DNA of 64,000 nucleotides. It comes from Candidatus Magasanikiibacteriota bacterium. Its GTDB lineage: Bacteria > Patescibacteriota > Patescibacteriia > Magasanikbacterales > UBA922. Under the pieces are notes generated by a model. That model worked only from the letters and a program-made list of their open reading frames with translations, did not search any database and was not told the DNA's origin. Where the stretch lies: NCBI GenBank assembly GCA_052033375.1, contig JBPOJQ010000014.1, positions 342 to 64,341 of the forward strand, in the 5' to 3' direction. The first letter of the stretch is position 1. Each line of letters starts with the position of its first letter. Both the position numbers and the translations under genes were made by a program. This document shows positions 5,968 through 29,137 of this stretch, piece by piece.

Positions 5968-5992
5968 TCCTCTGGTTTTTGATTTTTTACCC

Positions 5993-7399: not shown

Positions 7400-7434
7400 A
7401 TGTGTTGGTTAATTATTTTTGTTTAACATGAACC

Positions 7435-8187
7435 TTATATTCCCCATCGAACTTTCCTCTCTTCTCTTTTCCCCTCATAATATGCTGGCATCTGACGTAT
7501 CTCTCCTATCTCTATCCGTGGACCGAGCATTGCAATACTATGTTCAATTCCTGTGATTTTACTCTTGATATCCTGTGCCAAATCACGATGATCTTCACTC
7601 TGATTTTCAGCAAGATCATGAAGTGATCTTAGTACCTCATTCACTTCTTCAATCATTTTACCGTAGTATTCAATCTTTTCTTCATATGTTTTTCGGTCGT
7701 GAGTCAGTACAGCCTGCATAGCATAGCGACGAATATCATGCTTTAGATCTACCAACAATTCACCCAGCTCCTGCTTTTCAGCATGATCGAAATGTTCCGG
7801 CAGTGCCCCGCGGCATACTGGTCCAAAGCCTCCACCCAGTTCACACACCAGCATGTATTTTTTTCGTAAACTGGGAGAAGCTTTTTGTATGAAAAATTTA
7901 TCCCCCATTATTTTTTCATGATGTTCGACCATTTCTTCGAATGCCCTCATATAGGGCCACAACTTCATCCCATGTTCTACCATTGATTGTTCCACTTCGG
8001 AAAGAGAAATATCTTCCGTTCTATATAGACGATCAATCTCTACTTCCAGATTTTGTTTCAGATTTTGAGGAACTAATGGAGGAAGACGATGAAGAATTGT
8101 TTCGTAAATGGTAAGCGTATGTTGAATGATGGGTTGCATAGTGGTGATAGTATAGCATATCAAAACGACGCACGACACACACAGCAC
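7435..8187 (-). CDS. hypothetical protein
   Basis: 250-aa ORF (true start may be the internal MQPIIQHTL…); helical, charged; no recognisable motif. Confidence 0.4.
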   Translation of the reverse strand: MLCVSCVVLICYTITTMQPIIQHTLTIYETILHRLPPLVPQNLKQNLEVEIDRLYRTEDISLSEVEQSMVEHGMKLWPYMRAFEEMVEHHEKIMGDKFFIQKASPSLRKKYMLVCELGGGFGPVCRGALPEHFDHAEKQELGELLVDLKHDIRRYAMQAVLTHDRKTYEEKIEYYGKMIEEVNEVLRSLHDLAENQSEDHRDLAQDIKSKITGIEHSIAMLGPRIEIGEIRQMPAYYEGKREERKVRWGI

Positions 8188-8238
8188 AACAAGATACTTA
8201 TTGGTCGTGTTCCCATGAGTCGCGTATTGTTTTCTCCT

Positions 8239-8973
8239 TTAGAAGGATAAGTTATCTCTCCACCGTATATATAACTCTTTCGTTGCATGCAGATCTCCCG
8301 CGCAGTATTCTGCAATCTCCTTGCATTTTCCTGATTGAAACATGGGCAATACTTCATGCCCGTTCACCCCATTTGATTTAGGTGACTTGATTCCAAATGC
8401 TTTACAATAGAAATCAAGATTAAACTTACGATAGGCGTTGTAGAAGGTCAATTGCTCGAGTAAATCTACATGCGCATCAGTGCTATATCGATAGGGTGCT
8501 AAATTTTTGGTAGGTTTTACTCCAAGCATTGCTGATCGGAGCATGAGCACCGGACAATCAAACCCCCGCCCATTAAACGTTACAAATTTGTGAGAAAACG
8601 AAATGGCTTTCCAGAATTTTTCTAAAATTTCTTTTTCAGTCCCACACTCATATTTGATACCCTCTTTTTCGTATGGGTCAACCGTCTCTCCTGAGGTTTG
8701 AAAATATACAGCACCTTTCCCACTCTCAACTGAGAGCATACCAATCGCAACGATTCTGTTGGTTGGAGCCCAAAGTGCCATTTGTTGTTTTATCTTCTCT
8801 TCATCTTCTCCGTTTTCTGCAAACTTAAGCAAATAACTTTTTTGATCTTCATCCAATGTGTCGAAAGACACGGGAATAGTTTCGATATCGAATACTACTG
8901 TATTCATACATGTATTTATTACCCCACTTAATAACATACTTAACACTATACGACACCTGTTGATTTTTAGCAA
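8239..8973 (-). CDS. predicted 3'-5' exonuclease, PolB-exonuclease-like (RNase H-like fold)
   Basis: NTVVFDIETIP… (DEDD Exo I-type motif) followed by FNGRGFDCPVL and YCAGDLHATKELY resembling the PolB-like exonuclease domain family; start may be internal ATG at 8907. Confidence 0.6.
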   Translation of the reverse strand: MLKINRCRIVLSMLLSGVINTCMNTVVFDIETIPVSFDTLDEDQKSYLLKFAENGEDEEKIKQQMALWAPTNRIVAIGMLSVESGKGAVYFQTSGETVDPYEKEGIKYECGTEKEILEKFWKAISFSHKFVTFNGRGFDCPVLMLRSAMLGVKPTKNLAPYRYSTDAHVDLLEQLTFYNAYRKFNLDFYCKAFGIKSPKSNGVNGHEVLPMFQSGKCKEIAEYCAGDLHATKELYIRWRDNLSF

Positions 8974-9037
8974 AAATGTGTTAGGATATACTGATATATC
9001 CTACATTGATCTGTTCTAACTACCCTAGACAATCTCT

Positions 9038-9949
9038 ATGAAAAAAATTGCTGTTTTTTTTAAATTTCCTGGGGCAATGGATTATCCCTTATCCAAACCA
9101 ACATATTGGGCTTCATACTCCGAACTATCAGAGGCTATTAGCAATGCTGGTGGACAGCTCTATATCGTAAGAGGTCAGGACACATATCAAGGGCGCGGCT
9201 CTTTCTCAAATTCATGGATTATCAAAAATGATTCTCTTGTAGAAGCTGGGCCGATTGTTGCTGACGTTATTTACAATAAAGACAAGGGGCAGTTTAAAAA
9301 TGACCCCACACCAATCTTTAACTGCGAAAAAATAAAACAGATATGTGACGACAAATGGATCATGTATCAAACTTTTCCTGATTATTGTCCAAAAACTTTT
9401 TTTGTTACGACCGAGGAAGAGCTCCACTCTATACTACCTAATGTTTCTACTTCAAAAGTGGTATTTAAGCCGTATACGGGTGGTGAGGGAAAGGGTATCC
9501 ATATCGAAGAGAAGAATTATTTCTTAACTCTTCCTGAATTACTTGATTTTCCAGCAGTGGTATCGGAATTTTTAGATACCTCGTGTGGAATACCTGGAAT
9601 TGTCGATGGTTTGCATGACTTGCGCGTAGCTATTTTTGACGGAGAAATCCTCTACTCCTATGTAAGAACCCCTCCCAAAGACAGTTTTCTTGCAAATGTC
9701 TCCAAAGGGGGACGATTTGAGATGGTCGACACTAAACGATTGCCAGAAGAAGTGGCTGAAATGACTCATACAATCGACTCGACGCTATCTGACTGCGGTC
9801 ATCGCTTTTATGGGATCGATTTTGGTTACACGATGGATGGGCCAAAAATTATTGAAATGAATTCTGAGCTTGGACTCCTGCCAAATGAAGACCATCCTGT
9901 CTTTATTACCCTCAAAAACAAGCTGGCGCGAGTTTTTATGGATTTATAG
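9038..9949 (+). CDS. ATP-grasp domain protein (RimK/glutathione-synthetase-like)
   Basis: 303 aa; …KVVFKPYTGGEGKGIHI… and …GIDFGYTMDGPKIIEMNSELG… typical ATP-grasp nucleotide-binding segments. Confidence 0.55.
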   Translation: MKKIAVFFKFPGAMDYPLSKPTYWASYSELSEAISNAGGQLYIVRGQDTYQGRGSFSNSWIIKNDSLVEAGPIVADVIYNKDKGQFKNDPTPIFNCEKIKQICDDKWIMYQTFPDYCPKTFFVTTEEELHSILPNVSTSKVVFKPYTGGEGKGIHIEEKNYFLTLPELLDFPAVVSEFLDTSCGIPGIVDGLHDLRVAIFDGEILYSYVRTPPKDSFLANVSKGGRFEMVDTKRLPEEVAEMTHTIDSTLSDCGHRFYGIDFGYTMDGPKIIEMNSELGLLPNEDHPVFITLKNKLARVFMDL

Positions 9950-15025: not shown

Positions 15026-16144
15026 ATGCGGACAAAAGTACTCATTGTCTCACTCTCAGCAGGATCGGGACATCTCCAGACAGCTCGGGCTCTCGAAAAA
15101 GCTGCACTACTCGAATTTCCTGAACTTGAGTGTAGACATATCGATATCGCTGACTATATCACTCCATTGCTCAAAAAAGCTACTGTCGAAGGATACGACT
15201 TTCTGGCTGCACATATGCCAAAGGTGTGGTCCGGAATATTTCGACTTACCGATAATCAAACATTTGCCAAAACTTACCAGGCCCTCACCGGATATCTAAA
15301 AATGCTCAATTCATTCGACTTTCTACGCGAAGTAGAAAAATTCAAACCTGACCATATTATTACGACGCATTTCCTGCCTTCAGAAATTCTCGTACACGCC
15401 ATGAAAAAACAAGGTATTTCTATCCCGATTACCCAAATTATTACAGACTATGGAGTACACCCCATGATGATAATCAACGGTGTCACCAACTATGTGGTCA
15501 GCACACCACACATGAAAGAAGAATTGATTCATACGTATCATATTCCTCCCGCACATATATATGACTTTGGTATTCCAATTGATCCCGCTTTTTACCATAT
15601 ACCGCCTCTAGATCCCACTCGATCTAAATATCACATTCCTCACGACAAGCCACTTATTCTGCTCTTATCCGGCGGAAGTGGACTAATTGAGCTTTCAGAC
15701 ATTATTGAAGAATTATTTGCACACATACATACACCAATTACCATTGTTTCCGTGGCAGGAAAAAACAAAAAGCTTTTAGCTCGTATTTCAAAACTTATTC
15801 CTCCGGCACATATTACCTACAGGCCCATTGGGTGGACTGATCATATTCCACAACTCATGAAACTTTCTTCAGTTGTTATTAGTAAGCCAGGAGGCCTCAC
15901 GACTACAGAGTGTATGGCAACTGGCGTACCCCTCATCGCAATTCACCCCATCCCAGGACAAGAAGAATTTAATATTGCATACGTGAAAAAAAACCATCTT
16001 GGTGATTTTGCCCAAACCGCCACTGATATTCCACCTCTTGTCGACAATTATTTTTCAAAAAAATCTGCATACAAAAAACAGACTGTGGTGCAGTCTGGTC
16101 GACAACTTCTCACATGTATTATCCAATCAAAAATCAACCATTAA
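15026..16144 (+). CDS. glycosyltransferase, GT28-like (MGDG synthase/UgtP/MurG-like)
   Basis: MRTKVLIVSLSAGSGHLQTARAL… N-terminal motif of the MGDG-synthase/UgtP family; C-terminal GT-B half (…SKPGGLTTTECMATGVPLI…); ORF track start 14999. Confidence 0.65.
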   Translation: MRTKVLIVSLSAGSGHLQTARALEKAALLEFPELECRHIDIADYITPLLKKATVEGYDFLAAHMPKVWSGIFRLTDNQTFAKTYQALTGYLKMLNSFDFLREVEKFKPDHIITTHFLPSEILVHAMKKQGISIPITQIITDYGVHPMMIINGVTNYVVSTPHMKEELIHTYHIPPAHIYDFGIPIDPAFYHIPPLDPTRSKYHIPHDKPLILLLSGGSGLIELSDIIEELFAHIHTPITIVSVAGKNKKLLARISKLIPPAHITYRPIGWTDHIPQLMKLSSVVISKPGGLTTTECMATGVPLIAIHPIPGQEEFNIAYVKKNHLGDFAQTATDIPPLVDNYFSKKSAYKKQTVVQSGRQLLTCIIQSKINH

Positions 16145-16617
16145 TCAGGATAGAGCCCGTACGTATCTTGATTTATCTGTATAGTCGGATCATACCCCGG
16201 TGACATCGGATTATTAATGCTTCCATATATTCCCATATAAATAAAATAGGTAATGCTGTATGCACCAAGTATTAGCGCCACTCCAACCACACAGTACATC
16301 AATATTTTTTTTCCTACTTCAATTTTTTCTTCATTACCACTCGAGGTCATGATCAAAAATCCAGCGTATAGCGCGAGCACTACTGCAATAATACCAATCA
16401 CACTCAATGATGTCTTAATGAGTCGAGACACGATTATACGTGGGTCAGAGTATTTCAATTCCGCCCCTTTTTGTCCTGCAAATGCATTCAACTGGGCTTC
16501 CATTTCGGATCCCTGAAACTGACCTGGTTTTTGTTCAGCATACACCACCGATGAGATGCCCACAAATATGTGCAAGGCCACAAATGTGAACAGTATTATT
16601 TTTTTTATTGTATACAT
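16141..16617 (-). CDS. VirB2/TrbC-like 'T4SS-pilin' family small membrane protein (paralog 1 of 11)
   Basis: Signal peptide plus conserved C-terminal core …SVIGIIAVVLALYAGFLIMTSSGNEEKIEVGKKILMYCVVGVALILGAYSITYF…: two hydrophobic helices separated by a GN(E/D)EK loop. Confidence 0.6.
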   Translation of the reverse strand: MYTIKKIILFTFVALHIFVGISSVVYAEQKPGQFQGSEMEAQLNAFAGQKGAELKYSDPRIIVSRLIKTSLSVIGIIAVVLALYAGFLIMTSSGNEEKIEVGKKILMYCVVGVALILGAYSITYFIYMGIYGSINNPMSPGYDPTIQINQDTYGLYPD

Positions 16618-16634
16618 AGAAACATGTGCTGTGT

Positions 16635-17078
16635 TTATCCACTGCCGATTGTCTCTGCCAATATCCGGCTTGTAATAAAATTGGTGATACTGTACGCGGA
16701 CACAATAATTATCAATCCTATCACCGCGTATTCAATAATTTTTTTTGCCTTGGACACATTTTCATCATTTCCTGCTGCTGTAAACACTAAAAATCCTGCA
16801 TACACTATTAAAACTACAAATACTATCCCTAATAAGGAAAGTACTAGTTGTATTCCTTTTGCAACGGTGATCCGTATATCTTGCGCTTCGGTACCATACC
16901 CTGCTGCTTTCGATCCTGCATTCAATTGTCCCATGATATCTGGTCCACCAGTAGTAGTCGCACTAGCCTCTAATGGCAATCCACAGACCCCGCACACGAG
17001 GACACCGAGCATACACATAAGGAGAAATTTCTGTGTTTTTTTCATACAAAAGAGTCTGATTGATTTTTCAATACTCAC
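16635..17078 (-). CDS. VirB2/TrbC-like 'T4SS-pilin' family small membrane protein (paralog 2)
   Basis: …LSLLGIVFVVLIVYAGFLVFTAAGNDENVSKAKKIIEYAVIGLIIIVSAYSITNF… shared core; Sec-type signal peptide. Confidence 0.6.
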   Translation of the reverse strand: MSIEKSIRLFCMKKTQKFLLMCMLGVLVCGVCGLPLEASATTTGGPDIMGQLNAGSKAAGYGTEAQDIRITVAKGIQLVLSLLGIVFVVLIVYAGFLVFTAAGNDENVSKAKKIIEYAVIGLIIIVSAYSITNFITSRILAETIGSG

Positions 17079-17079
17079 A

Positions 17080-17490
17080 TTAAGGACTTGTGCTTGAAGA
17101 AGTTATTGATCCCTCAAGTACACGCGGTACAACAAATCGAGTAATACTGTATGCCGCCATCAAAATTATCAATCCTATTACTGCCCTACCAATAATATTT
17201 TTTGCCTTAGCCACCTGCTCATCCTCTCCTCGAGCGGTCATCCAGAGATAGCCAGCATACACAATAAGCACCGTGAATAACACCCCTAATATTGAAAATA
17301 GTACAGTGATAATACGACCAATATTTTCTGCTAACGTAGTTTCTGTTGCTTGCACATAGCCTGCTTGCGCACCTGCTTTATGCACGTCTTCGATACCAAG
17401 ATTTTGAGCATGCGTGGTGGTCACTAATAACCCACACACGAGTGTCCCAAGGATAAAACTTATTTTTTTAAATATTTGATGATATGACAT
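17080..17490 (-). CDS. VirB2/TrbC-like 'T4SS-pilin' family small membrane protein (paralog 3)
   Basis: …FSILGVLFTVLIVYAGYLWMTARGEDEQVAKAKNIIGRAVIGLIILMAAYSITRF…. Confidence 0.6.
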   Translation of the reverse strand: MSYHQIFKKISFILGTLVCGLLVTTTHAQNLGIEDVHKAGAQAGYVQATETTLAENIGRIITVLFSILGVLFTVLIVYAGYLWMTARGEDEQVAKAKNIIGRAVIGLIILMAAYSITRFVVPRVLEGSITSSSTSP

Positions 17491-17557
17491 AGTATAAAGT
17501 TGAAATTTTGACTATCAGTGACCTTTTGGCATCCACTCACTGCTCATCCAGGATTGT

Positions 17558-17950
17558 TTAATTTCCACTAAATCGTGATGTGATAAATACTGTAATGGCG
17601 TATGATGACACCACAATAAATAATCCCATTATTGATGATTTGATAATTTCTTTTGCCTTGTTCACCTGCTCATCCTCTCCTCGAGCGGTCATCCAGAGGT
17701 AGCCAGCATACACTGTAAGGACCAAAAATATAATGCCGACCAGACTCAACACTGTCTTTATCACATTGCCCACCACCGCAGATAAATCCGTTGGTACATT
17801 TCCACCAATGCCTTTTTGCACATTTTGTAAATTATTCCCCGCATTTCCGAGGTTCCCAGTTCCGATTACCGTGGCTGGTAGCGCAACAATACCTAGTACC
17901 AAAAGTACTACCTGTACACAAATTTTTTTATATACATCATTTTTTTTCAT
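17558..17950 (-). CDS. VirB2/TrbC-like 'T4SS-pilin' family small membrane protein (paralog 4)
   Basis: …LSLVGIIFLVLTVYAGYLWMTARGEDEQVNKAKEIIKSSIMGLFIVVSSYAITVF…; 50-bp segment nearly identical to paralog 3. Confidence 0.6.
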   Translation of the reverse strand: MKKNDVYKKICVQVVLLVLGIVALPATVIGTGNLGNAGNNLQNVQKGIGGNVPTDLSAVVGNVIKTVLSLVGIIFLVLTVYAGYLWMTARGEDEQVNKAKEIIKSSIMGLFIVVSSYAITVFITSRFSGN

Positions 17951-17961
17951 ACAGAGTTCAT

Positions 17962-18354
17962 TTATTTACCGAAATTGACTGCATTTGTTACAAATGTCGC
18001 TATAGCATATCCGCCGACAGTTATGATAAGACCAATTACTGCCGCAGTGAGTGTCTGACGAGATTTTGCTATTTTTTCTTCCTCACCTCGAGCTAAGAAC
18101 CATGTGATGCCCGCGTATAGGGTAAGCACAAAAAATAAAAGTCCCAACATCCCAAAAATCCACTGGGCCACGTTCCCCACATAGGTAGCTACCTCATTTT
18201 TTGGTAGCCCAGTCGGGGCAATTGTCGAATCAAGAGCAGATCCAGCATCTTCGATAGTTTTTTTTGCATGCGCATACCCCACTTGTACAAAACTTGCACC
18301 TATCACTACCAATGTATACGCAATAATAATACGAGATTTTATTCCCATACACAT
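17962..18354 (-). CDS. VirB2/TrbC-like 'T4SS-pilin' family small membrane protein (paralog 5)
   Basis: …FGMLGLLFFVLTLYAGITWFLARGEEEKIAKSRQTLTAAVIGLIITVGGYAIATF…; likely start at internal Met (18348) to avoid overlap. Confidence 0.55.
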   Translation of the reverse strand: MCMGIKSRIIIAYTLVVIGASFVQVGYAHAKKTIEDAGSALDSTIAPTGLPKNEVATYVGNVAQWIFGMLGLLFFVLTLYAGITWFLARGEEEKIAKSRQTLTAAVIGLIITVGGYAIATFVTNAVNFGK

Positions 18355-18941
18355 AATGTAGCATTTGCATTACAAGACACCTCATCTGTCAACGTAGGAC
18401 AAATTGTCTTACCTTTTGATTCGCATGAAGTTCCTATATATGAACACAGATTCCCCCCACTTTCGCACACATCTTTGTTTTCCTGTGCAGTTAAAGCGCT
18501 GTCAACCGATGTAAGACAACTCGCTTCAATTGCTTTTTTAGATGTACACTTTCTTACTGTTTCAGTATTTGTATTATTACCTGTGTTTGCTCCCAATTTA
18601 AACACAAAATTGGTCAATGCATAGGCCCCAATAATGATAATAATTCCAATTGTTGCCGCGATAATAGTATTCAATGCTTTCTCGGTCTGCTCTGAGCTCC
18701 CTCGGGCCGTCATCCACAAAATTCCTCCGTATAGTACGAGTACAAAAAAAAGTACTGAGATCATCGAGAGAAGCGTACCGATTACATTTCCAGCAATCGT
18801 TGGTACACTATTGCCGTACGTGTCGAGTTTTGCGGCGCCAGCAGTCTCATCAAGACCAAAATTTCCTGCCAACACCGTCGTACCTAATGCAAAAATCAAT
18901 ACTACTACACCGATTCCCGCGATAATATACGCTCTTCTCAT
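18339..18941 (-). CDS. VirB2/TrbC-like core with C-terminal Cys-rich extension (paralog 6)
   Basis: MRRAYIIAGIGVVVLIF… then …LSMISVLFFVLVLYGGILWMTARGSSEQTEKALNTIIAATIGIIIIIGAYALTNF… followed by ~85-aa tail with 8 Cys; start chosen at 18941 to avoid overlap with upstream gene. Confidence 0.55.
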   Translation of the reverse strand: MRRAYIIAGIGVVVLIFALGTTVLAGNFGLDETAGAAKLDTYGNSVPTIAGNVIGTLLSMISVLFFVLVLYGGILWMTARGSSEQTEKALNTIIAATIGIIIIIGAYALTNFVFKLGANTGNNTNTETVRKCTSKKAIEASCLTSVDSALTAQENKDVCESGGNLCSYIGTSCESKGKTICPTLTDEVSCNANATLCVWE

Positions 18942-18951
18942 AAAAAATTTA

Positions 18952-19380
18952 TTAAGGATACATGGGGCCGCACGATCCGGTGGTTTCACACAAAGATCGA
19001 AGAACAAAACTCATGATTGAATATGAAGTCATGATAATTATCAGTCCCATTACTGCTGCAAAAAGTATTTTCTTTGCCGTACCTACTTTTTCATCATTTC
19101 CCCCCGCTGTCATCCAGGTAAATCCGGCATATAGAATAATCACTACCGAAACAATCCCCAATAAACTCAACGCAAAATTAATAATCCGAATGGTGATAAT
19201 ACGTGGATCTTCACCACTTAATCCTGAATACTCAGTACCTGCGCAATCAAGTCCTAATACATCTCCAGGATTGTCTGTACCATCACATCCTTGGGCTAAT
19301 ACGGGTCTTGGGTGTAGTGTCACAAGGGTAATCAAAAAAATACCTGATAAGAGACACGTAAGAATTTTTTTTGTATTCAT
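18952..19380 (-). CDS. VirB2/TrbC-like 'T4SS-pilin' family small membrane protein (paralog 7)
   Basis: Signal peptide; Cys pair in N-terminal part (QGCDGTDNPGDVLGLDCAG); …LSLLGIVSVVIILYAGFTWMTAGGNDEKVGTAKKILFAAVMGLIIIMTSYSIMSF…. Confidence 0.6.
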   Translation of the reverse strand: MNTKKILTCLLSGIFLITLVTLHPRPVLAQGCDGTDNPGDVLGLDCAGTEYSGLSGEDPRIITIRIINFALSLLGIVSVVIILYAGFTWMTAGGNDEKVGTAKKILFAAVMGLIIIMTSYSIMSFVLRSLCETTGSCGPMYP

Positions 19381-19474
19381 AGCATTCTAAGAGGATCAAA
19401 GCCTTCACCAACCTTTTGAAGAATCGGTGAGGGCTCTGACACCCGTACGGGTGTAAGAGTGAGAAGCACATTAC

Positions 19475-19888
19475 TTATGCTTCTTCTACCGCTGTTTGAA
19501 TTGAATTGATAAAGAAATTTGCAATCGCGTATGCAGATAAAATGATCGCAAGACCAATTACTGCAGCGATAATAATTTTCTTTGCCGCTTCTACACTTTC
19601 ATCGTTTCCACCAGCAGTCATCCATTTGAAACCACCCCAGAGGATCAATATTACTGCGATTAATCCTAAGAATGTTAACGCGAGGTTGATAATATTAACT
19701 ACCACTTCGCGTGCATCAGTCTCATCAGTACTGATGTTCAAACCCGTTGTTGGTTCGATACCAAATGGATCGTCATTTACATTTGTTGTGAAGGCAACTT
19801 TTGGTGATAACGTAAATACAGTTACTAAAGCTACAATAGCCAATAATACATTTCTATGCTTTAGTAATTTTGCTTGTATGTTTTTCAT
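19475..19888 (-). CDS. VirB2/TrbC-like 'T4SS-pilin' family small membrane protein (paralog 8)
   Basis: …LTFLGLIAVILILWGGFKWMTAGGNDESVEAAKKIIIAAVIGLAIILSAYAIANF…. Confidence 0.6.
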   Translation of the reverse strand: MKNIQAKLLKHRNVLLAIVALVTVFTLSPKVAFTTNVNDDPFGIEPTTGLNISTDETDAREVVVNIINLALTFLGLIAVILILWGGFKWMTAGGNDESVEAAKKIIIAAVIGLAIILSAYAIANFFINSIQTAVEEA

Positions 19889-20075
19889 ACTCCCTCACCC
19901 CCCTTCAATTTTTGACATGTTTTATACATAACAATGAATCACGTTTATGTACGAACTTACGAACAAATGCCGAAAGTACGAAACTTTATTTTACTATTCT
20001 TGGTTGCACCTCCAACTTTACTTAAAATAAATTTCGTACTTTCGTAATGGATTTCTTAAGTTCGTACGTATATTA

Positions 20076-20474
20076 TTAATTTGGACTCGCCTGTAACGTG
20101 GTTAAAATCAACGTAATTATAGCATAGCTACTAAAAACTACAATAATTCCAATTCCAGCCCAAAGCATCGCCTGTAATCCCTTCTGAATCTTTTCTGAAT
20201 TTCCTGCTGAGGTGAGCCAGAGAAAACCCCCGTACAGGAATACGACAAAGGTGATTGACCCCACGATTCCCATGATGACCTGAATTGTATTTCCTATAAT
20301 CACTTTTATATCCGATGTTTCGAGTGGGTTCACCAACGATACACATTCTTCTCCCGTACGACAAACACTTGCTGGTGTGCTCGAGGCCGAAGCTAATTGA
20401 AAATTACTAAAACTTATAAGAGTTCCAAATATAAGTATTATAATCACGACTAATTTTTTCCAACTTTTCTTCAT
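20076..20474 (-). CDS. VirB2/TrbC-like 'T4SS-pilin' family small membrane protein (paralog 9)
   Basis: …MGIVGSITFVVFLYGGFLWLTSAGNSEKIQKGLQAMLWAGIGIIVVFSSYAIITL…; CxxxxC in N-terminal region. Confidence 0.55.
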   Translation of the reverse strand: MKKSWKKLVVIIILIFGTLISFSNFQLASASSTPASVCRTGEECVSLVNPLETSDIKVIIGNTIQVIMGIVGSITFVVFLYGGFLWLTSAGNSEKIQKGLQAMLWAGIGIIVVFSSYAIITLILTTLQASPN

Positions 20475-20479
20475 ACTAA

Positions 20480-21652
20480 TTAAAATGGTGTCAGATTAGG
20501 GTTAATGCCAATCGCCTTTACAATAAAGCTCACTAATATGTAGGCTGAAAATGCGATTATCATACCCACGGTTGCGGCTACTAATATCTGCTTTCCTTGT
20601 CCTACTTTTTCTGAATTTCCAAATGACAGAACCATAGTGAGACCACCATAGACAAAAAATGCAAACCCAAGTCCAGCAATAATGCCAAAAAGCCAATTTG
20701 CCACGTTCACTCCAAGCTCTATCAAATCTTCCACACTACGACAGGTGCCTGTAAAGGCGCACGCAGGAAGTGGGCCTGTATAGTCATCAGGTCTACGATA
20801 ACGATCGGCTATATATTGATCGACCGCTTTTGACATATCGACATCAGTTGTTTTTTTTATACACGTATTATTTTCTCCAGTTGTACAATAGTTTGCAGTC
20901 GCACAGACATCTGGTGGTAATTGTGTACAGTCTACTGCAGGATCAGCTTTTGCCATGCATTTTGCCGGAGCGACCCACCAAAAACATTGTGAATTTGCTT
21001 CACAGATAGACTTTTCCTTACCATTATTTTGTGCGCACAAAGGGACCGGATTTACCTGCTGTTCATCTCCGTCAGCCTTCTTGAAAAAATATACATATGC
21101 ATCATCCACATCTGCATCAAGATCGTTGAAATAGAATCGTAATCGTGCATTTACTTCAGCAGCACCGCACTTGACTGAATTAATAAGAGGATATGTCGCC
21201 CTATCTGGTCTCTTATCATCAGATTGATAACTATTCCATTGACCCGTTCCACTTACTAGATAGGATCCAGGGACACCCGGTATACCACCACTCGCACTAC
21301 ATAGAGAATTATCATGAATTTGCATGCGCACATCTTCATCTCCCCAGCTTTGATCAATCACGAAAACACCGTCCTTATCAATACCTTTTATAAGCTGTGC
21401 CCAGTTGACTTCATTGATACCTACAGGAATCGTAACACAAAAAAATCTACCTCCTGTTGGCTGATTAGTCGTTTCATTGAAATCATCATCTTGACTTATT
21501 TTAAAAATTGCTAATTCTGTCTGCCCTGGTATGGCAAATGTTGGACACTTGAATCCCCCAAGTGATGCATCAACCGCATGTAATTCTGATGCAATAAAAA
21601 AAGTACTGAAAAAAGATAGTGTCAAAAAAATATGTTTGATACAACGATTCAT
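20480..21652 (-). CDS. large Cys-rich secreted domain fused to VirB2/TrbC-like core (paralog 10)
   Basis: 390 aa; signal peptide, ~300-aa ectodomain with >20 Cys, C-terminal …FGIIAGLGFAFFVYGGLTMVLSFGNSEKVGQGKQILVAATVGMIIAFSAYILVSF… core. Confidence 0.55.
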   Translation of the reverse strand: MNRCIKHIFLTLSFFSTFFIASELHAVDASLGGFKCPTFAIPGQTELAIFKISQDDDFNETTNQPTGGRFFCVTIPVGINEVNWAQLIKGIDKDGVFVIDQSWGDEDVRMQIHDNSLCSASGGIPGVPGSYLVSGTGQWNSYQSDDKRPDRATYPLINSVKCGAAEVNARLRFYFNDLDADVDDAYVYFFKKADGDEQQVNPVPLCAQNNGKEKSICEANSQCFWWVAPAKCMAKADPAVDCTQLPPDVCATANYCTTGENNTCIKKTTDVDMSKAVDQYIADRYRRPDDYTGPLPACAFTGTCRSVEDLIELGVNVANWLFGIIAGLGFAFFVYGGLTMVLSFGNSEKVGQGKQILVAATVGMIIAFSAYILVSFIVKAIGINPNLTPF

Positions 21653-21660
21653 AAACTTAT

Positions 21661-23046
21661 TTAGTACGTTTGTTGAATTTTTGCAGCCGCATTAATGATT
21701 ACGGTTTTATCTTTTTTGAGTGTCTCTTGTTCAGTATTTCCGGCTCTAAGAAATTCTGTAATCATATCTTTCATTGCTGAAACAGCTATTTCGCTCTCTC
21801 GTCCTCTATACCAATTATCTGCAAACAATGCTTGGGTTGCAAATGGCCCCATGGTCTCGTCTTGTTGTTGAACTACGATTTGTTCGCGGTAAGGACTCGG
21901 TCTAAAAGTCGCTGTCGTATAGGTCTGCACTTTTTCTTTTGAAGAAATAAATCGTACAAAATCCCATGCTTCATTTTGATGTTTTGATTTTTTTACCACT
22001 GATTCAAGCCAATAATTGGCTACATTTGCAGGCGATCCAGAATTCAATTGAGGTACTGTCGTAATTTTGATATTGAGCTGTGGTGCACGTGCTTTGATAC
22101 GCGGATAATCATATGCAAATCCGAAAAAAAACGCGCTTTTCCCTCGTACAAATTCGTCGAATGCATTTTGTTGCTTTTCGTTCCAGCTGTACCGATCTGC
22201 AGTAGCTCTCGCAAATCCGGTATAAAAATCTAGGGCTCGAATCATCGGATGCGAACGATCTTGAGACCGATCTACACCTGCTGCAAACGTAACTGATTCC
22301 TGAGTTACGGGAGTTGCCCCACTCTGTACCATAAATAGCGAGACAATATCAAAAAAATTATCAATATTATTGGAGGTTCCGAGTGCTACCCCTGATTGTG
22401 TAATATCAAGCGTTGCGTTGAATTTAGTCGTTTTCTGTACCGCTGCGACAAATTCTTCCCATGTAGTCGGTGCTTCGGCTATCCCTGCCCGATCGAGAAG
22501 TGTCTGATTGTAGAAGAGCGCCAGTGAATCGAAGGCAATAGGTAATCCATAAATTTTTCCCTCAATTACAGCATCTTTGTGGACTGATTGGACATATTCA
22601 CTACGCAGGTCGCGTTCTTTGGGTAGCGGAATAGTATCGACCACCACTGCCATCTCTTTGGTGTACTTATTTTTTTGTATTAAACGTGGTACTTGGACAC
22701 TGTCAGGGGCTGTAGCAAGTCGATTCTGATTTTTTCGAATCCAGCGTACATGCATAGATACTATATCTGGCCCCACATCGTCTGCTAATGCGTTGGTAAA
22801 TAATTGATCGAATTCTTCATATCGTACTTGTCGTATATTTATCGTCACTTGTGGTCGTAGTGCCTTGTATTCTGCAGCATATTTTTTCAATTCTTCCACA
22901 TCATTATACACCGTCCAATAATTCAATGTGACCGCCTTTACACTTGATTGCTCCTGCGCAGTCAATCCTTTGCACCCAAAACCAGAAAAAACCAACAACA
23001 CAGTTAGAATGGTGGAAAAAATTATCGATCGCTGCCTGGTTTTCAT
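21661..23046 (-). CDS. ABC transporter substrate-binding lipoprotein (family 1, sugar-type)
   Basis: 461 aa; lipoprotein signal with lipobox-like …FSGFGC; periplasmic-binding-protein type 2 fold residues throughout. Confidence 0.7.
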   Translation of the reverse strand: MKTRQRSIIFSTILTVLLVFSGFGCKGLTAQEQSSVKAVTLNYWTVYNDVEELKKYAAEYKALRPQVTINIRQVRYEEFDQLFTNALADDVGPDIVSMHVRWIRKNQNRLATAPDSVQVPRLIQKNKYTKEMAVVVDTIPLPKERDLRSEYVQSVHKDAVIEGKIYGLPIAFDSLALFYNQTLLDRAGIAEAPTTWEEFVAAVQKTTKFNATLDITQSGVALGTSNNIDNFFDIVSLFMVQSGATPVTQESVTFAAGVDRSQDRSHPMIRALDFYTGFARATADRYSWNEKQQNAFDEFVRGKSAFFFGFAYDYPRIKARAPQLNIKITTVPQLNSGSPANVANYWLESVVKKSKHQNEAWDFVRFISSKEKVQTYTTATFRPSPYREQIVVQQQDETMGPFATQALFADNWYRGRESEIAVSAMKDMITEFLRAGNTEQETLKKDKTVIINAAAKIQQTY

Positions 23047-23121
23047 AGTTTTCTAGTTATTGAGTTGTCTAGTTTTTTGCTACATGATACTACATCACCC
23101 AAAAACCATAATTAATTAACC

Positions 23122-23835
23122 TTATCTGAATATTTCAAAAATAAAATTCACCAATGCATAACTTGCAAAAATCAACACTATCCCCAACCCTGCCCAAAGA
23201 ATTGTATCTCTAGCTTTCTGTGTACTCTCAGAATTCCCTCGTGCTGTCATCCATGTGATTCCACCATAGAGCATCATGACCAGTGCCACTGTCCCGACCA
23301 CCCCCATAACCCCTTTTATCAACACACCAATCAGTTCTGGGAGTGTGTCTGCTTCTAGTTTATTGAGTTGATTTGCGTATTTAGAGAGTTGGGTTGACGA
23401 TGTGTTCCCGCGTGCAACCTCATCTACACATTTCTGAAAATTCGTGTATTCAGTACACGCACCGCAATTCCCTGGTGTCATAATACTTCCCCCGGCAGCA
23501 CTATTGCCATATTTGATACACTGATTTCCACACCGACATCCGCCATTTGGATAAGTAATGCCCCCAGCTTGACACGCCTGCAGTGTTTCAAATGGTTCTT
23601 GCAAGGGCGGACTACAAAAAGTTTCCAGCCATGAAGAATCTATTTTTCCTACTCCTTGCACACCATTTATATTTGGAACATCGTCCCCAATTTTATAACA
23701 CACACTGTTTATCTTACACGCCTGAGTCGCAGTAAAAACATTATGTGAAAAAAACATGGTGCCACTTAATATAACAAGCAAAACGAATATTTTTTTACTT
23801 TCTCGAAAAAATAACGACATATATGCGTAGTTCAT
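23122..23835 (-). CDS. Cys-rich secreted domain fused to VirB2/TrbC-like core (paralog 11)
   Basis: 237 aa; ~150-aa ectodomain with 12 Cys then …VMGVVGTVALVMMLYGGITWMTARGNSESTQKARDTILWAGLGIVLIFASYALVNF…. Confidence 0.55.
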   Translation of the reverse strand: MNYAYMSLFFRESKKIFVLLVILSGTMFFSHNVFTATQACKINSVCYKIGDDVPNINGVQGVGKIDSSWLETFCSPPLQEPFETLQACQAGGITYPNGGCRCGNQCIKYGNSAAGGSIMTPGNCGACTEYTNFQKCVDEVARGNTSSTQLSKYANQLNKLEADTLPELIGVLIKGVMGVVGTVALVMMLYGGITWMTARGNSESTQKARDTILWAGLGIVLIFASYALVNFIFEIFR

Positions 23836-24791: not shown

Positions 24792-26192
24792 TTATTTCAC
24801 TTCTTCCCAACTAATCAACTCATACGTCGAACCCACAGGAAATCCCGGTGGCGGATAATATTGCAGATTACCATCGTATACATGATTCGTATAATAGTAT
24901 CCCGAGACGACCTGCCCACTCCCATTGATATACTTCCATCCACCGCCTGCATATGAAATCTGTGAACCAAAAAAGGTGAGAGAATTTTTAAGTGCACCCG
25001 CATGTTGACTTGGGTTGTAATACGGAGTGTAAATTTTTGCATACTGCGTCAATGCTGCAGCATTGATTTCAAGTGTACTCGGAGCCTCGTATGGAATGAT
25101 AATATCCCCTTGGGCTATAATCCCGATTACATCGTCACTTGATTTTTGTTTCTGTAGCAAATTATTCGAGATAAATACTTCTTTGTAATTACTTGGTACA
25201 GGGAAATTTCCCACACCGATCGTTACCCTCCCATCGACAGTTCCCTCTACCCAGACATTATCTTCGACAAACATGACTCCATTTGCCGGAAGTGTGTAGG
25301 TACCAATCAATGTTTTTGTTCCAATATCATAACAATATGATGTCCCATTCCAATACCACCCAGACCATCTCCATCTCCAATTTCCTTCACCGTAATAGCA
25401 GTCGCGGGTATTCACCCGATATACCGTATACTGTGTATCATTAAACACAATGTGATATCCCTCTCCCCCTGAAGAAGCAAGATATTTTCCACCACTCTGT
25501 GCAGCAGTGCGTATGTCTGAGAGATCCGCTGATACTGACCCAAAATCAGCTGCAGGAACTGGAAATTCCCAATAATATTGAGGTCCTCCCGCACCCCAAA
25601 TACCCGCTTTGGTGGTACCTTCATATGTGTACGTCGTCTTTGCACTTCGAATCCATGAATCCGTTGTGCCATCAAATCTAATACCGCCATTAGACATTAT
25701 TTCGCCATGTACCTGAGTCGTGGCACTAAAAGACATATCCACATTCTCTATAAATGCACTGTCCGTAAAAGAAGGAAATCCTAAACGAACTTTGATGGCT
25801 CGATTGGCATTCGGAGACGATGCGACAGTGCCGGTAGATGCCACTGCAATTACAGAAGAATTGGGCAAGGGCGTTGAGATACTTATTGCAAAACTCCCTA
25901 CCGTGCTATTAAACTTATCTTTTATATTATGCACATATGGCCCCGGAGCACCTGTACCATCAGTGAAATCAGTTGGATTATGCGCCAAATGCCACCGATA
26001 ATAATTTATACCAGCTTCTGAGATATGAAATGTCACATCGCGACGGTACACCTCCATGGAAATACGGTGTTCGAATAAGGAGTAACTCAAAATTCCCAAG
26101 ACCATTGTCACGAATGCTATTGATCCAAAAACCATCACAATGAGTAATGTATTTCCCTGATGCCATTGAATTTTTTTTCTACTTTTATACAT
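24792..26192 (-). CDS. PilX-like type IV pilus minor pilin
   Basis: 466 aa; N-terminus …QGNTLLIVMVFGSIAFVTMVLGILSYSLFEHR… resembles PilX_N (hydrophobic helix after Gly, no Glu5); large beta-rich C-terminal region; first gene downstream of pseudopilins. Confidence 0.45.
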   Translation of the reverse strand: MYKSRKKIQWHQGNTLLIVMVFGSIAFVTMVLGILSYSLFEHRISMEVYRRDVTFHISEAGINYYRWHLAHNPTDFTDGTGAPGPYVHNIKDKFNSTVGSFAISISTPLPNSSVIAVASTGTVASSPNANRAIKVRLGFPSFTDSAFIENVDMSFSATTQVHGEIMSNGGIRFDGTTDSWIRSAKTTYTYEGTTKAGIWGAGGPQYYWEFPVPAADFGSVSADLSDIRTAAQSGGKYLASSGGEGYHIVFNDTQYTVYRVNTRDCYYGEGNWRWRWSGWYWNGTSYCYDIGTKTLIGTYTLPANGVMFVEDNVWVEGTVDGRVTIGVGNFPVPSNYKEVFISNNLLQKQKSSDDVIGIIAQGDIIIPYEAPSTLEINAAALTQYAKIYTPYYNPSQHAGALKNSLTFFGSQISYAGGGWKYINGSGQVVSGYYYTNHVYDGNLQYYPPPGFPVGSTYELISWEEVK

Positions 26193-26224
26193 ACATGTGA
26201 ACCACTACTCGTATATGTGAATAA

Positions 26225-26848
26225 TCAATTGGTCTTCAAATTTCTAATATGTGTCAACGATTCGACTCTCAACGGTACCGGACTTTTTGTCTGATCCTTT
26301 TCTATTTCAATAATAATTTTTACCATTCGTATATTTGTAATACTCACTGGATCAGACATCGCCGCCTCGCTCCCAGTATAACTCTCGGTAAAATATTGAA
26401 AAGTCGGTGTTCCTCGCGATGCATTTCTCACATAGCTTGCCAATGTGGTCACTTGCTCTTGTCCTGAATAATTCAACGGATTTCCGCTGGGTTTTAATAT
26501 TCCACGCTTTAGATCAGTACCAGACAACCAATAATGTATACGTTCACGCATACTATCCCCGTCAATATTTGCATATACTATCAGCGATGACGTTGTAGCT
26601 TCTGCTATCGGATACGAACCAATGCTTGAAGCTTCTGCAGTTCTAATAGTATTCACAATTTCAGACACCACTCGTCGAGCATCCTTTTGTCCATATAATT
26701 GATCATCGAGTACACGCTGATTGCGGAAAGTCAGTATAATAAATGATGTAGCTCCGAGACCTACAATCAATGAAATTCCCATGACAACCGCTACCTCAAG
26801 CAGGGTCATTCCTCGGTAATCACTATTATTTTTATACACACGTTTCAT
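26225..26848 (-). CDS. type IV pilin-like protein (prepilin-type N-terminal cleavage/methylation domain), PilW-like
   Basis: …YRGMTLLEVAVVMGISLIVGLG… class III signal (G|MTLLE with Glu+5). Confidence 0.6.
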   Translation of the reverse strand: MKRVYKNNSDYRGMTLLEVAVVMGISLIVGLGATSFIILTFRNQRVLDDQLYGQKDARRVVSEIVNTIRTAEASSIGSYPIAEATTSSLIVYANIDGDSMRERIHYWLSGTDLKRGILKPSGNPLNYSGQEQVTTLASYVRNASRGTPTFQYFTESYTGSEAAMSDPVSITNIRMVKIIIEIEKDQTKSPVPLRVESLTHIRNLKTN

Positions 26849-28620
26849 AGAGAAGTTAGATCTGCGATTATAAAATGATCCTCGGTTACCTCGAATATTT
26901 CTTCGTAATCCTGATACCCTTCTGCTTCAATATGAATCGTATATTCCCCTTGGGATAAATTTCCCACATATACTTGCCCTGGTGGTGTACATGCATTCGT
27001 ATAGACAAATGTAAGGTCAGAGAGTAGCGGTGAAACCGATGGGTCTGCGGTATCCAAATATACTCGATAACGCATGTACCTCTCATCATCATGAACATCT
27101 GATATATGCACACTGCTTTCAGTAAAATAGGTATTTTCTGTACCATCAGGTCCTACAAAAACCCAAGACTGCGGTGTGCTCGAAGGGCTGGTAGCCATTT
27201 GCAGCCGTAGCGTCGTCGAAGGTGACTGGGCCATAGGATTCCACGACCAGATAATATATCGTGCATTTTCTCCAGTATCTATTGTTGACGATTCAAGATA
27301 TCCGCTTGATACATAGTCATTTCCATTCTTTGCAAGAAGCACATTTCCTGGACTAGTGAGTGTGTCAACACCACTCGCTGAACTGTATCCACCCTCTTCC
27401 TCAGTAAAATTTTCAAATCCTGCACCCATTGACCACTCTGTCTGTCCAATACTTCCAACTCCAGTATTTTTTGTAGAAGAAAAACCATTTGGTCCAGTAA
27501 TCGTCACGGTTGCATTGGCAATCGGAGCACTCTGATGTTCTGCCATAACCACTAGTGAGCGTGATGTATTCGGACCTAAAATCAATGTGCCTACTTCGTC
27601 TGCTCCAGGGAGTAATGTCATTGGAACATCAGGAATGGTCCCAATCAAATCATAGCCGGATACCACCAAACCATAACTATCCCACGGCAGAGAAATAAGC
27701 GACTGCATTCCACCAGCATCAGTCGTATAACTCTCATGTATCAAATAGACACTTGGATTCGCACCGATAAGTCGTGTCCCCTTGATCTGAAATGGTACAT
27801 TTCCCACTGCATTACACTGAGCATTTTTGGTTTCAACACTTAATGTAGAAATTTCATCAATAGTTAACGTGAGATTACTGACTTCCTGTTGCAGGACAGT
27901 CACATTCGAGGTAGTCGGATTTGGATTGGTCGAACTTGGTGCATAGGTCTTATCTGTGGTGTATCCTGTCTTTGTCGCCTGTATAAAATATTTTGCAGTA
28001 CCAGTAGCTAAATCATATATACGCAAAAATCCATCATCATCTGTCGTATCCATGAAATTATACGAGGGGTCAGTGCTCGTCGAAATAACAGTGACCGACG
28101 CATTTGAAACAGGATTACCATATGCATCGATCACTTGAACAAATAATGCACCGTGGTTCAGATTTCCTTCTAGATATTTTGGTGCAATATAGGTATACAT
28201 TGACAATGGTTCAGTCTGATCACACGAGACGCAGCGCGCCTCAATTTGAACAAATTTGTAATCAGCTGGCGCAGTATCCCCAGTCATTCCACCGATAGTT
28301 CCATCGTATGGATCATCAATATTTCGTATAGTGCGAGTAATTTCAAATATCATGCCATTTCGCGAAGTTGTGGTAGTATACTCAAATATACCAGAAGGAC
28401 TTCCATTGATAATTCCCACATCCTCGAAAGCTACGTTGTGCATAATTTCCATTTGTTCATTCAAAATAGCCGTCCCAAGGATGCGGACTCGAGAATGATA
28501 CACGAGTGAAAAACTCAGCTGGATACTACCATAAATTCCAACAATAAATAGCCCGAAAATGCCGAGTGCAACGACTGACTCAATTAAGGTAAATCCTTTC
28601 TGTATACGCGGTATTTTCAT
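26845..28620 (-). CDS. large type IV pilin-like protein (PilV-like N-terminus with ~550-aa ectodomain), candidate pilus tip/adhesin
   Basis: MKIPRIQKGFTLIESVVALGIFGLFIVGIY… canonical G|FTLIE prepilin signal; long Thr/Ser-rich beta-rich C-terminal domain. Confidence 0.6.
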   Translation of the reverse strand: MKIPRIQKGFTLIESVVALGIFGLFIVGIYGSIQLSFSLVYHSRVRILGTAILNEQMEIMHNVAFEDVGIINGSPSGIFEYTTTTSRNGMIFEITRTIRNIDDPYDGTIGGMTGDTAPADYKFVQIEARCVSCDQTEPLSMYTYIAPKYLEGNLNHGALFVQVIDAYGNPVSNASVTVISTSTDPSYNFMDTTDDDGFLRIYDLATGTAKYFIQATKTGYTTDKTYAPSSTNPNPTTSNVTVLQQEVSNLTLTIDEISTLSVETKNAQCNAVGNVPFQIKGTRLIGANPSVYLIHESYTTDAGGMQSLISLPWDSYGLVVSGYDLIGTIPDVPMTLLPGADEVGTLILGPNTSRSLVVMAEHQSAPIANATVTITGPNGFSSTKNTGVGSIGQTEWSMGAGFENFTEEEGGYSSASGVDTLTSPGNVLLAKNGNDYVSSGYLESSTIDTGENARYIIWSWNPMAQSPSTTLRLQMATSPSSTPQSWVFVGPDGTENTYFTESSVHISDVHDDERYMRYRVYLDTADPSVSPLLSDLTFVYTNACTPPGQVYVGNLSQGEYTIHIEAEGYQDYEEIFEVTEDHFIIADLTSL

Positions 28621-28630
28621 TCAAAAAAAA

Positions 28631-29137
28631 TTATTCTTCAATCCCCAATTCAACCATAATTTTTTCGACTATTGCACGAGCTTCTGCACTAGTCCGAGCA
28701 GGTACAGTCTTTTTGTCTCGACCTTCTTCCACAAGCGCTCTGACCAGATCTTCTTTCATGCCGAGTAATTCTTTTTTATGTTCAATGATTTTTTGTTTGA
28801 GTTGTGCAACCACCCTCTGGTCTTCCCCTATCGAAGGCGCCCCCTCAACGGTGGTCAATTGTAATTGTTGCCTCAGTATCTTCAGTGCGGATAGTACGTG
28901 CTGAATATGCAACACCACGTTTTGCACTTGTGTTGTAGCATTTTGCACTTCTTTTACAAGATATTCTGCTCGCTCACGAATTGCTGCAGTCCGCATTTCT
29001 TCGTCTAACTCAATTCCATTCGTTTCTTTTGTTTCTCTATTTTTTTCTTTCTCAAAAACATATTTTTTTTCTTGATTTTCCATATACTGCATCTTCAATG
29101 CTAGATTTTTCATAAGTATATCACAGTACAGATTCAA
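28631..29137 (-). CDS. hypothetical coiled-coil protein (first gene of the minor-pilin operon)
   Basis: 168-aa charged helical ORF; no motif. Confidence 0.4.
   Translation of the reverse strand: MNLYCDILMKNLALKMQYMENQEKKYVFEKEKNRETKETNGIELDEEMRTAAIRERAEYLVKEVQNATTQVQNVVLHIQHVLSALKILRQQLQLTTVEGAPSIGEDQRVVAQLKQKIIEHKKELLGMKEDLVRALVEEGRDKKTVPARTSAEARAIVEKIMVELGIEE

Follow-up and report, generated by a model that had tools for sequence, protein, structure and literature searches.

A fixed-order array of eleven VirB2-like pilin genes with an embedded solute-binding protein gene in a Magasanikbacterial genome

A 64,000-nucleotide stretch of the 68.8-kb contig JBPOJQ010000014.1 from a Candidatus Magasanikiibacteriota bacterium (the whole stretch is called the window here) carries, on its minus strand at 16141-23835, eleven pilin open reading frames (ORFs; pil1 to pil11) encoding 130-390 amino acids (aa), with a single non-pilin gene between pil11 and pil10 that encodes a 461-aa solute-binding protein (SBP). 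Judged by profile matches, the eleven proteins belong to the PF18895 family of VirB2-like pilins, and their genes keep a fixed order that is shared with related genomes. In our assessment, this is rather likely to be a Patescibacterial VirB2-like array whose pilins are assembled by a type IV secretion system (T4SS) encoded elsewhere, and an old fixed-order set in which pil8 provides the major pilin and the other ten genes provide minor ones. The members of the array, from its upstream end, are:

23122-23835, minus strand: pil11, 237 aa, with a signal peptide, an ectodomain of about 127 aa containing 10 Cys and a C-terminal two-helix core; PF18895 E 1.1e-9 (38.7 bits), PF04956 E 2.3e-5, NF045849 39.8 bits
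21661-23046, minus strand: SBP gene, 461 aa, probable lipoprotein (...VFSGFGC...); SBP_bac_1 and SBP_bac_8, E ~1e-22
20480-21652, minus strand: pil10, 390 aa, with a 281-aa ectodomain (beta-sandwich plus Cys-rich part) and 14 Cys in the mature protein; PF18895 E 8e-9
20076-20474, minus strand: pil9, short, 132 aa, with a single pair of Cys in its exposed N-terminus; PF18895 E 2e-9
19475-19888, minus strand: pil8, short, 137 aa, no Cys, proposed major subunit; PF18895 E 1.4e-10
18952-19380, minus strand: pil7, short, 142 aa, Cys pairs in both exposed ends; PF18895 25.6 bits, array core model E 2e-34
18339-18941, minus strand: pil6, 200 aa, core close to the N-terminus, then a C-terminal extension of 80 aa containing 8 Cys; PF18895 E 1.9e-6
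17962-18354, minus strand: pil5, short, 130 aa, start overlapping the pil6 stop by 16 nt; PF18895 E 2.2e-7
17558-17950, minus strand: pil4, short, 130 aa; PF18895 E 2.5e-9; core 96-99% identical in related loci L001-L003
17080-17490, minus strand: pil3, short, 136 aa; PF18895 E 3.4e-11
16635-17078, minus strand: pil2, short, 147 aa, GTG start with an alternative ATG at 17045; PF18895 E 4.5e-10
16141-16617, minus strand: pil1, 158 aa, 25-aa C-terminal tail, last gene of the array; PF18895 E 6.5e-7

All eleven are complete ORFs with their own starts; for pil6, translation probably begins at the ATG at 18941 (MRRAYII...) and not at the TTG listed for 19007. The genes are separated by short gaps or overlap at most junctions, consistent with co-transcription, and the array is probably transcribed as a unit.

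The eleven proteins share a core of 77 aligned columns without gaps. Residues G30, G38, E41, G56 and Y64 of the core are invariant, and Y28 and F69 are nearly so; two of the glycines are placed in or just after the first helix, the glutamate in the loop, and the third glycine and the tyrosine in the second helix. A hidden Markov model (HMM) of the eleven cores was searched against all six-frame ORFs of the window and recovered exactly these eleven with E-values of 1e-26 to 1e-35. The next best ORF gave an E-value of 0.9, so the count of eleven is exact and the shared core is no chance pattern. An initial reading made from the sequence alone (the sequence-only reading) had described eleven minus-strand genes with a common core at these coordinates, and the search bears this out. 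The same reading had all of the proteins ending in a module of ~70 aa. The module is indeed present in all eleven, as the 77-aa core, but pil6 and pil1 continue past it with their extension and tail. Core identity between pairs of copies averages 36% (range 25-53%), and the full-length identity of the other array pilins to pil1 is 19-39%. The regions N-terminal to the core have no significant similarity to one another among the eleven pilins, as had been noted.

All eleven N-termini contain a charged or basic stretch, a hydrophobic stretch and an AxA-like site (for example VYA↓E, ASA↓T, THA↓Q, AHA↓K, VLA↓Q, LHA↓V). The class III N_methyl motif (PF07963) was not matched by any of the eleven, whereas two neighboring genes, 26225-26848 and 26845-28620, do match it; the earlier contrast between Sec-type signals in the array and class III signals next to it therefore holds. 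With neither a class III signal nor an N_methyl match, the prepilin peptidase route is excluded for the array pilins. The parts outside the core differ widely in size. Eight of the eleven members have only ~18-29 exposed residues, and three are Cys-rich. The sequence-only reading had counted three members with disulfide-rich domains; the number was right, with pil10 and pil11 carrying such a domain at the N-terminus and pil6 at the C-terminus. Small Cys pairs also occur in pil7 and pil9. Because the Cys-rich domains have even numbers of Cys and are found at either end of the core, they suggest that both pilin termini are extracytoplasmic. A phmmer search with the pil10 ectodomain (residues 27-305) against 1.84 billion representative proteins returned only 33 proteins at E <= 1e-3. 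Almost all of these are 300-570 aa long and align to the part just before the pil10 hairpin, and ~6-8 cover nearly the full ectodomain; the small number of relatives indicates that the domain is lineage-restricted. Its fold gave no significant structural match.

The family assignment was examined with three profiles. PF18895 (T4SS_pilin; gathering score 26.6 bits) matched all eleven proteins with E-values from 1e-5 to 3e-11, and ten of them lie above the gathering score at 28.3-43.5 bits. The exception, pil7, falls one bit short of the cut-off and yet is matched strongly by the core HMM of the array itself. The suggestion that these are T4SS pilins of the VirB2 type, which the sequence-only reading had advanced as a guess to be checked with HMMs, is thus supported. 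PF04956 (TrbC/VirB2; gathering score 27.9 bits) gave six sub-threshold matches with E-values down to 2e-5, the best being pil11 (25.0 bits), pil8 (24.7 bits) and pil3 (21.9 bits); five pilins had no match at E <= 0.1, and none of the eleven reached the gathering score. NCBIfam NF045849 (80 positions) matched four of the five pilins tested, pil4, pil6, pil8 and pil11, over 64-75 positions with E-values of 1e-7 to 3e-10, and did not match pil10. All of these matches are below the equivalog cut-off of 40 bits, which pil11, at 39.8 bits, only just misses. The NCBI annotation of one ortholog reads "pilin".

In the AlphaFold2 (AF2) model of pil8, a signal-peptide helix is joined by a disordered linker to a helical hairpin (59-91/96-136) with a predicted local distance difference test score (pLDDT) of ~90. 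The model of pil10 (pLDDT 79) has a β-rich region at ~35-195 (pLDDT 85-92), a Cys-rich segment and a hairpin formed by helices 307-342 and 347-381. The alignment and these two models agree on the layout of PF18895, in which a short polar loop connects two hydrophobic helices that come after a signal peptide. The same architecture is found in the VirB2/TrbC/TraA pilins (PF04956) of F, T and archaeal conjugation pili, to which the array proteins have the weak profile similarity given above. In a Foldseek search with the pil10 model, the highest-probability PDB match was also an archaeal conjugation pilin (8dfu, Aeropyrum pernix conjugation pilus; probability 0.82, template modeling score 0.65 on the target), at an E-value of 1.6 that is not significant. 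The array differs from the classical systems in scoring below the PF04956 gathering score and in gene organization, since the T4SS operon of those systems contains a single pilin gene. We know of no classical pilin with an ectodomain of 130-280 aa.

Orthologs of the embedded SBP led to 30 related loci (L001-L030) from Magasanikbacteria-like or Patescibacteria-like genomes, with SBP identities of 35-88%. These loci were scanned with the core HMM and each match was assigned to its best window paralog, giving a slot number. The three closest genomes have the order 11-SBP-10-9-8-7-6-5-4-3-2-1 and cores that are 83-99% identical to those of the window; the SBP in the closest relatives is 86-88% identical to that of the window. 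Slot order is essentially collinear in ~15 further genomes in which the SBP is only 46-62% identical. Overall, about 20 related genomes share the collinear arrangement. Some slots have been duplicated, with three slot-8-like genes in L009, two in L025, and three slot-6-like genes in L010 and in L030. The number of pilin genes per locus reaches 14-15 in L009 and L010, and the 15 of L010 include three large pilin genes upstream of the SBP.

Nonsynonymous (dN) and synonymous (dS) divergence was compared between the window and the three closest genomes; dS is saturated, which makes omega unreliable and leaves dN informative. The pilin cores have dN values of 0.006-0.13, comparable to 0.07-0.10 for the SBP gene and the GalU-like gene that precedes the array. 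Values are 0.12-0.6 for the short exposed segments and 0.27-0.46 (48-60% identity) for the ectodomains of pil10 and pil11, and reach 0.92 for the pil6 tail against L001, where the extension is 30% identical. The exposed domains therefore change ~2-10 times faster than the cores, a comparison that the sequence-only reading had proposed. At the level of sequence, the cores evolve at rates like those of housekeeping genes and are under strong purifying selection. DNA-level repeats between copies are confined, in the window, to one notable case: pil3 and pil4 share 88 nt with 86% identity (17192-17279 and 17643-17730) where helix 1 ends and the loop follows, with the identical peptide VYAGYLWMTARGEDEQV encoded in both; the stretch may be a short gene-conversion tract between neighbors. 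Nothing resembling a silent cassette, a truncated copy, an invertible segment or a long shared DNA flank turned up at the array. Taken together, collinear order, conserved cores and the scarcity of repeats fit long-lived, non-redundant paralogs with fast-changing exposed parts. By these comparisons the copies are ancient positional 1:1 orthologs in a fixed order and not a recent or recombining repertoire.

One slot stands apart from the others in its translation signal. Two features lie upstream of pil8:

19895-19904, minus strand: extended Shine-Dalgarno (SD) motif AGGGGGGTGA, 6 nt upstream of the pil8 ATG, reading GAAGGGGGGTGAGGGAGT-ATG
19949-20067, minus strand: long, near-perfect RNA hairpin in the pil9-pil8 gap, with a minimum free energy of -50.4 kcal/mol (z -5.6) and a sequence that is unique in the window

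The pattern A[AG]GG[AG]GGTGA has a single match on both strands of the 64-kb window, directly before pil8. In 20 related loci it occurs at 21 sites, and 21/21 lie 4-8 nt before the start of a slot-8 pilin gene; both slot-8-like copies in L025 have the strong motif. SD motifs are otherwise almost absent from the regions upstream of start codons in the window, and rpsF, ssb and the trigger-factor gene have none; apart from pil8, the sole 6-mer match, AAGGAG, precedes a 237-aa ORF at 55038-55751 with no Pfam match. The pil8 core is the most conserved in the array, with 99% identity to the L001 and L003 orthologs, and its signal peptide is unusually conserved as well (88% identity to the same orthologs). 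Its dS against L001 and L003, 0.34-0.70, is the lowest in the array, compared with values above 1 for most other genes. The best PF04956 alignment of the array is also that of pil8, spanning profile positions 5-98 of 98 (E 2.8e-5), and the gene is preceded by a gap of its own (187 nt). Because of the conserved SD motif, the conservation of core and signal peptide, the low dS, the TrbC alignment and this gap, pil8 is probably the abundant major pilin, with the other ten made in smaller amounts; this assignment is drawn from sequence features. In L001 and L003 this gap is far shorter, so the RNA hairpin is probably absent from them; it may be a palindromic insertion, or act as a signal for processing or stability.

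The SBP gene had been described as interrupting the array. It is present as stated and is the sole intervening gene, but its distribution is that of a conserved member: of the 27 related loci whose sequence extends far enough downstream, 26 have a PF18895-type pilin gene directly after the SBP ortholog, which makes the SBP part of the locus. This adjacency extends to distant relatives with SBP identities of 35-40%, in which the rest of the array is elsewhere. No transporter gene was seen beside the SBP in the window.

VirB2-type pilins are made as pre-proteins that are cleaved by signal peptidase I, and they sit in the membrane as a hairpin with the loop inside. By the same route, each array pre-protein would be exported by Sec and lose its signal peptide, and the two-helix hairpin would remain in the membrane with its short charged loop inside and both termini outside. 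A T4SS from elsewhere in the genome (VirB4, TrsD and a VirB3-like protein) would then extract the hairpins and polymerize them through the shared core into a pilus or a cell-to-cell conduit toward a host cell. In such a structure, pil8 would be the shaft subunit, and the other ten would be incorporated rarely or at an end, displaying fast-evolving N- or C-terminal surface domains that probably track host surfaces. The SBP lipoprotein is a conserved partner of the pilin set. A distant T4SS is compatible with published annotations. The genomes of L006, L010 and L011, which carry the same array, are recorded as containing VirB4, at a site other than the array. In the Magasanikbacteria genomes GCA_000990355.1 and GCA_000992085.1 (PMC12102498, Table S3), VirB4 is next to TrsD, with a VirB3 homolog in one of them, and the listed VirB2 is scored as "not near VirB4".

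Several results weigh against a T4SS-assembled filament. As had been noted initially, no VirB4, VirB6 or VirD4 appeared in the window, here among the ~55 larger ORFs scanned against Pfam (~10 ORFs of 110-165 aa were unscanned, and some scanned ORFs had no Pfam match). In relatives, ten large unmatched ORFs lying within 10 kb of the array were checked and likewise yielded none of the three. Fold searches with the pilin models gave no significant match, and helical hairpins match many unrelated proteins; the core profile searched against PDB sequences matched no solved pilin. A 281-aa globular ectodomain on a VirB2-type subunit is, to our knowledge, without precedent among solved conjugative pili. 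With dS saturated, positive selection on the exposed parts cannot be shown. Finally, a 2025 review treats the Patescibacterial T4SS pilus as a possibility, with no observed structure.

A more elaborate version, which we regard as conceivable but doubtful, makes the eleven slots parts of one heteropolymeric machine, with pil8 as major pilin, the ten minor pilins serving as a tip or adhesin in place of VirB5, and the SBP as an obligate partner, for example in docking or in the capture of host-derived molecules. This machine would be genetically uncoupled from VirB4 and organized together with the type IV pilus genes, or its assembly might depend on a different machinery. The fixed slot order speaks for paralogs that are non-redundant parts and not interchangeable variants. 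No VirB5 tip protein is known to us in Patescibacterial systems. For the division into major and minor pilins in the favored model, type IV pili offer an analogy, as one abundant subunit and several rare ones share a hydrophobic polymerization module and differ in their exposed domains. Their fold and assembly are unrelated, however: type IV pilins have a class III signal, PilD processing and a single N-terminal helix, and the array pilins fail the N_methyl motif. If this version were true, the locus would encode the first multi-subunit T4SS-type pilus.

It is unlikely that the hairpin is a membrane anchor only, which would place the ectodomains on the cell surface as adhesins or binding modules with neither filament nor T4SS. 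Such an arrangement would fit an array unlinked to VirB4 in the window and among the large unmatched ORFs checked in relatives, and ectodomains of up to 281 aa are large for a VirB2-type polymer; structure searches cannot separate the core from generic hairpins. The anchor would, however, have little to display in the eight members with short exposed segments. A simple anchor also needs no conservation at the level of housekeeping proteins, which here includes the polar-loop G and E, and the core is homologous to pilin families.

The sequence-only reading had proposed a variable surface repertoire, possibly for antigenic or host-range variation. In such a system, one or a few copies would be used at a time, and copies would be exchanged or switched. 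The idea is also found in PMC12102498, where host-strain adaptation or antigenic variation is proposed for such arrays by analogy with Bartonella and Anaplasma. The rapid change of the exposed domains, the slot duplications in L009, L010 and L030 and the possible conversion tract in pil3/pil4 speak for it, and runs of A8/T8 are slightly enriched (9 observed, 5.4 expected). Against this, order and 1:1 orthology are kept across genomes in which the SBP is only ~50% identical, the cores are conserved as described, all eleven genes are complete with their own starts and most junctions suit co-transcription. The recombination-type repeats are limited to the 88 nt, the cassettes, invertible segments and flanks expected of a switching system were not found, and a single slot bears the conserved strong ribosome-binding site. 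The repertoire is accordingly weakened and now seems improbable. The virB2 paralogs of Anaplasma and Bartonella cited in PMC12102498 are likewise tandem and divergent and are thought to vary an exposed surface, but they belong to diderm animal pathogens, and the ancient positional orthologs of the window argue against rapid turnover.

The surroundings of the array are also conserved. In ~15 related loci, a same-strand run comprises S6, SSB, three type IV pilin-like genes (for the 168-aa protein, the 591-aa pilin and the 207-aa pilin), the 466-aa protein, GalU, pil11, SBP and pil10 to pil1, and a convergent monogalactosyldiacylglycerol-synthase gene lies beyond the end of the array after pil1 and is also kept in syntenic loci. 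The corresponding features of the window are:

24792-29137, minus strand: four genes upstream of the GalU-like gene, encoding proteins of 466, 207, 591 and 168 aa
23838-24677, minus strand: NTP_transferase (GalU-like) gene, a conserved neighbor directly upstream of the array; PF00483 E 2e-26
16079-16097, minus strand: terminator-like hairpin and T-run, 44 nt past the pil1 stop, with a 7-bp stem (4 GC pairs) and tail TTTTTTGTAT; a pattern match only, from a consensus scan

The pil11 start is only 2 nt past the stop of the GalU-like gene. The 207-aa (26225-26848) and 591-aa (26845-28620) proteins have N_methyl class III signals, the latter with a CarboxypepD_reg domain in addition, and the 466-aa and 168-aa proteins have no Pfam match. 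PilB, PilC and PilM are encoded 7 kb away. The array does abut type IV pilus genes, as had been observed. That the array pilins are accessory proteins of this type IV pilus system, working with PilB/PilC, is nevertheless highly improbable, for although the run is conserved and PilB/PilC/PilM are close, the pilins have Sec-type signals and no N_methyl motif, the arrays of distant relatives L019, L020 and L026 are in other gene contexts, and the family adjoins VirB4 in 1135 of 1948 Patescibacteria assemblies (PMC12102498).

Arrays of this kind have already been described, in 2023-2025, in contrast to the initial statement that no description was known. In a survey of 3,035 Patescibacteria genomes based on PF18895 and PF04956, Quinonero-Coronel et al. 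2025 (PMC12102498) reported 441 VirB2-like arrays of 2-11 genes, with a mean within-array identity of 25% and a maximum of 54%, most abundant in Microgenomatia and Saccharimonadia. An array there consists of at least two VirB2-like genes in tandem or with one non-pilin gene between them, which describes the eleven genes and the SBP here, and the identities given above are similarly low. The PF18895 membership, Sec signals and chromosomal location are common to both, as is an origin-proximal position, which that survey reports for virB4 loci. At eleven genes, the window array is at the top of the published range, and the related loci extend this to 14-15; it comes from Magasanikbacteria, placed in GTDB class ABY1 (PMC12102498, Table S1), and not from the two classes richest in arrays. 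PMC12102498 also cites an essential Southlakia epibionticum array and a "Sec secreted array" of TM7x. In Southlakia epibionticum ML1, a predicted pilin series inside the T4SS cluster proved essential (Wang et al. 2023, PMC10633639), and the essential Southlakia series is also described in PMC12857230. That series lies within the T4SS cluster, whereas the Magasanikbacteria array is away from VirB4. The host-range or antigenic idea, too, was already in print.

The present array is therefore no new category, and what it adds are refinements: the fixed slot order, the conserved SBP partner, the slot-8 SD signal, the separation from VirB4 and the size. The embedded SBP, the slot order and the strong slot-8 ribosome-binding site were not found in the consulted passages of these papers, and in published surveys a gene like that of the SBP counts merely as "a non-pilin gene". 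The Patescibacterial T4SS proved essential in the only species tested to date, and a pilus has yet to be observed; the slot-8 pilin, with its conserved strong ribosome-binding site, would be the first gene to tag or image. HMM surveys may also undercount arrays in ABY1. Using the T_virB2 profile, PMC12102498 (Table S3) lists only 1-3 VirB2 genes for GCA_000990355.1 and GCA_000992085.1, and in one of these the calls are genes 461, 463 and 531 only. The pair 461/463, flanking one gene, resembles pil11-SBP-pil10, and the published survey may thus have missed further members.

NF045849, the Mbov_0395 family of pilin-like conjugal transfer proteins, is named for a Mycoplasma bovis locus tag, and its model describes a component of a conjugative element and not a chromosomal array. 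Should the family be part of conjugative elements of monoderms, a foreign origin of VirB2-like proteins in monoderm-type T4SSs might not have to be assumed, which is relevant to the published proposal that the pilins of Patescibacteria were taken over from another class of T4SS.

The window also contains rnpA (56151-56528), dnaA (57580-58968) and dnaN (59215-60342). Cumulative GC skew falls to ~58 kb and then rises, with its minimum at ~56-60 kb, and most genes to the left are on the minus strand; this region is the probable replication origin. The same genes and skew minimum put the array close to this origin, at a distance of ~35-40 kb, with transcription and replication running the same way.

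Two further gene groups lie outside the array. At 5993-7399 is a gene for a MATCAP-family protein (PF08014, tyrosine carboxypeptidase-like), flanked by ATP-grasp ligase-like genes at 4657-5967 and 9038-9949; the group (4657-9949) could be a peptide ligase/carboxypeptidase pair, unusual for a reduced genome. A GGDEF-domain (diguanylate cyclase-like) protein is encoded at 48246-49433 on the minus strand, in what is a small Patescibacterial genome.

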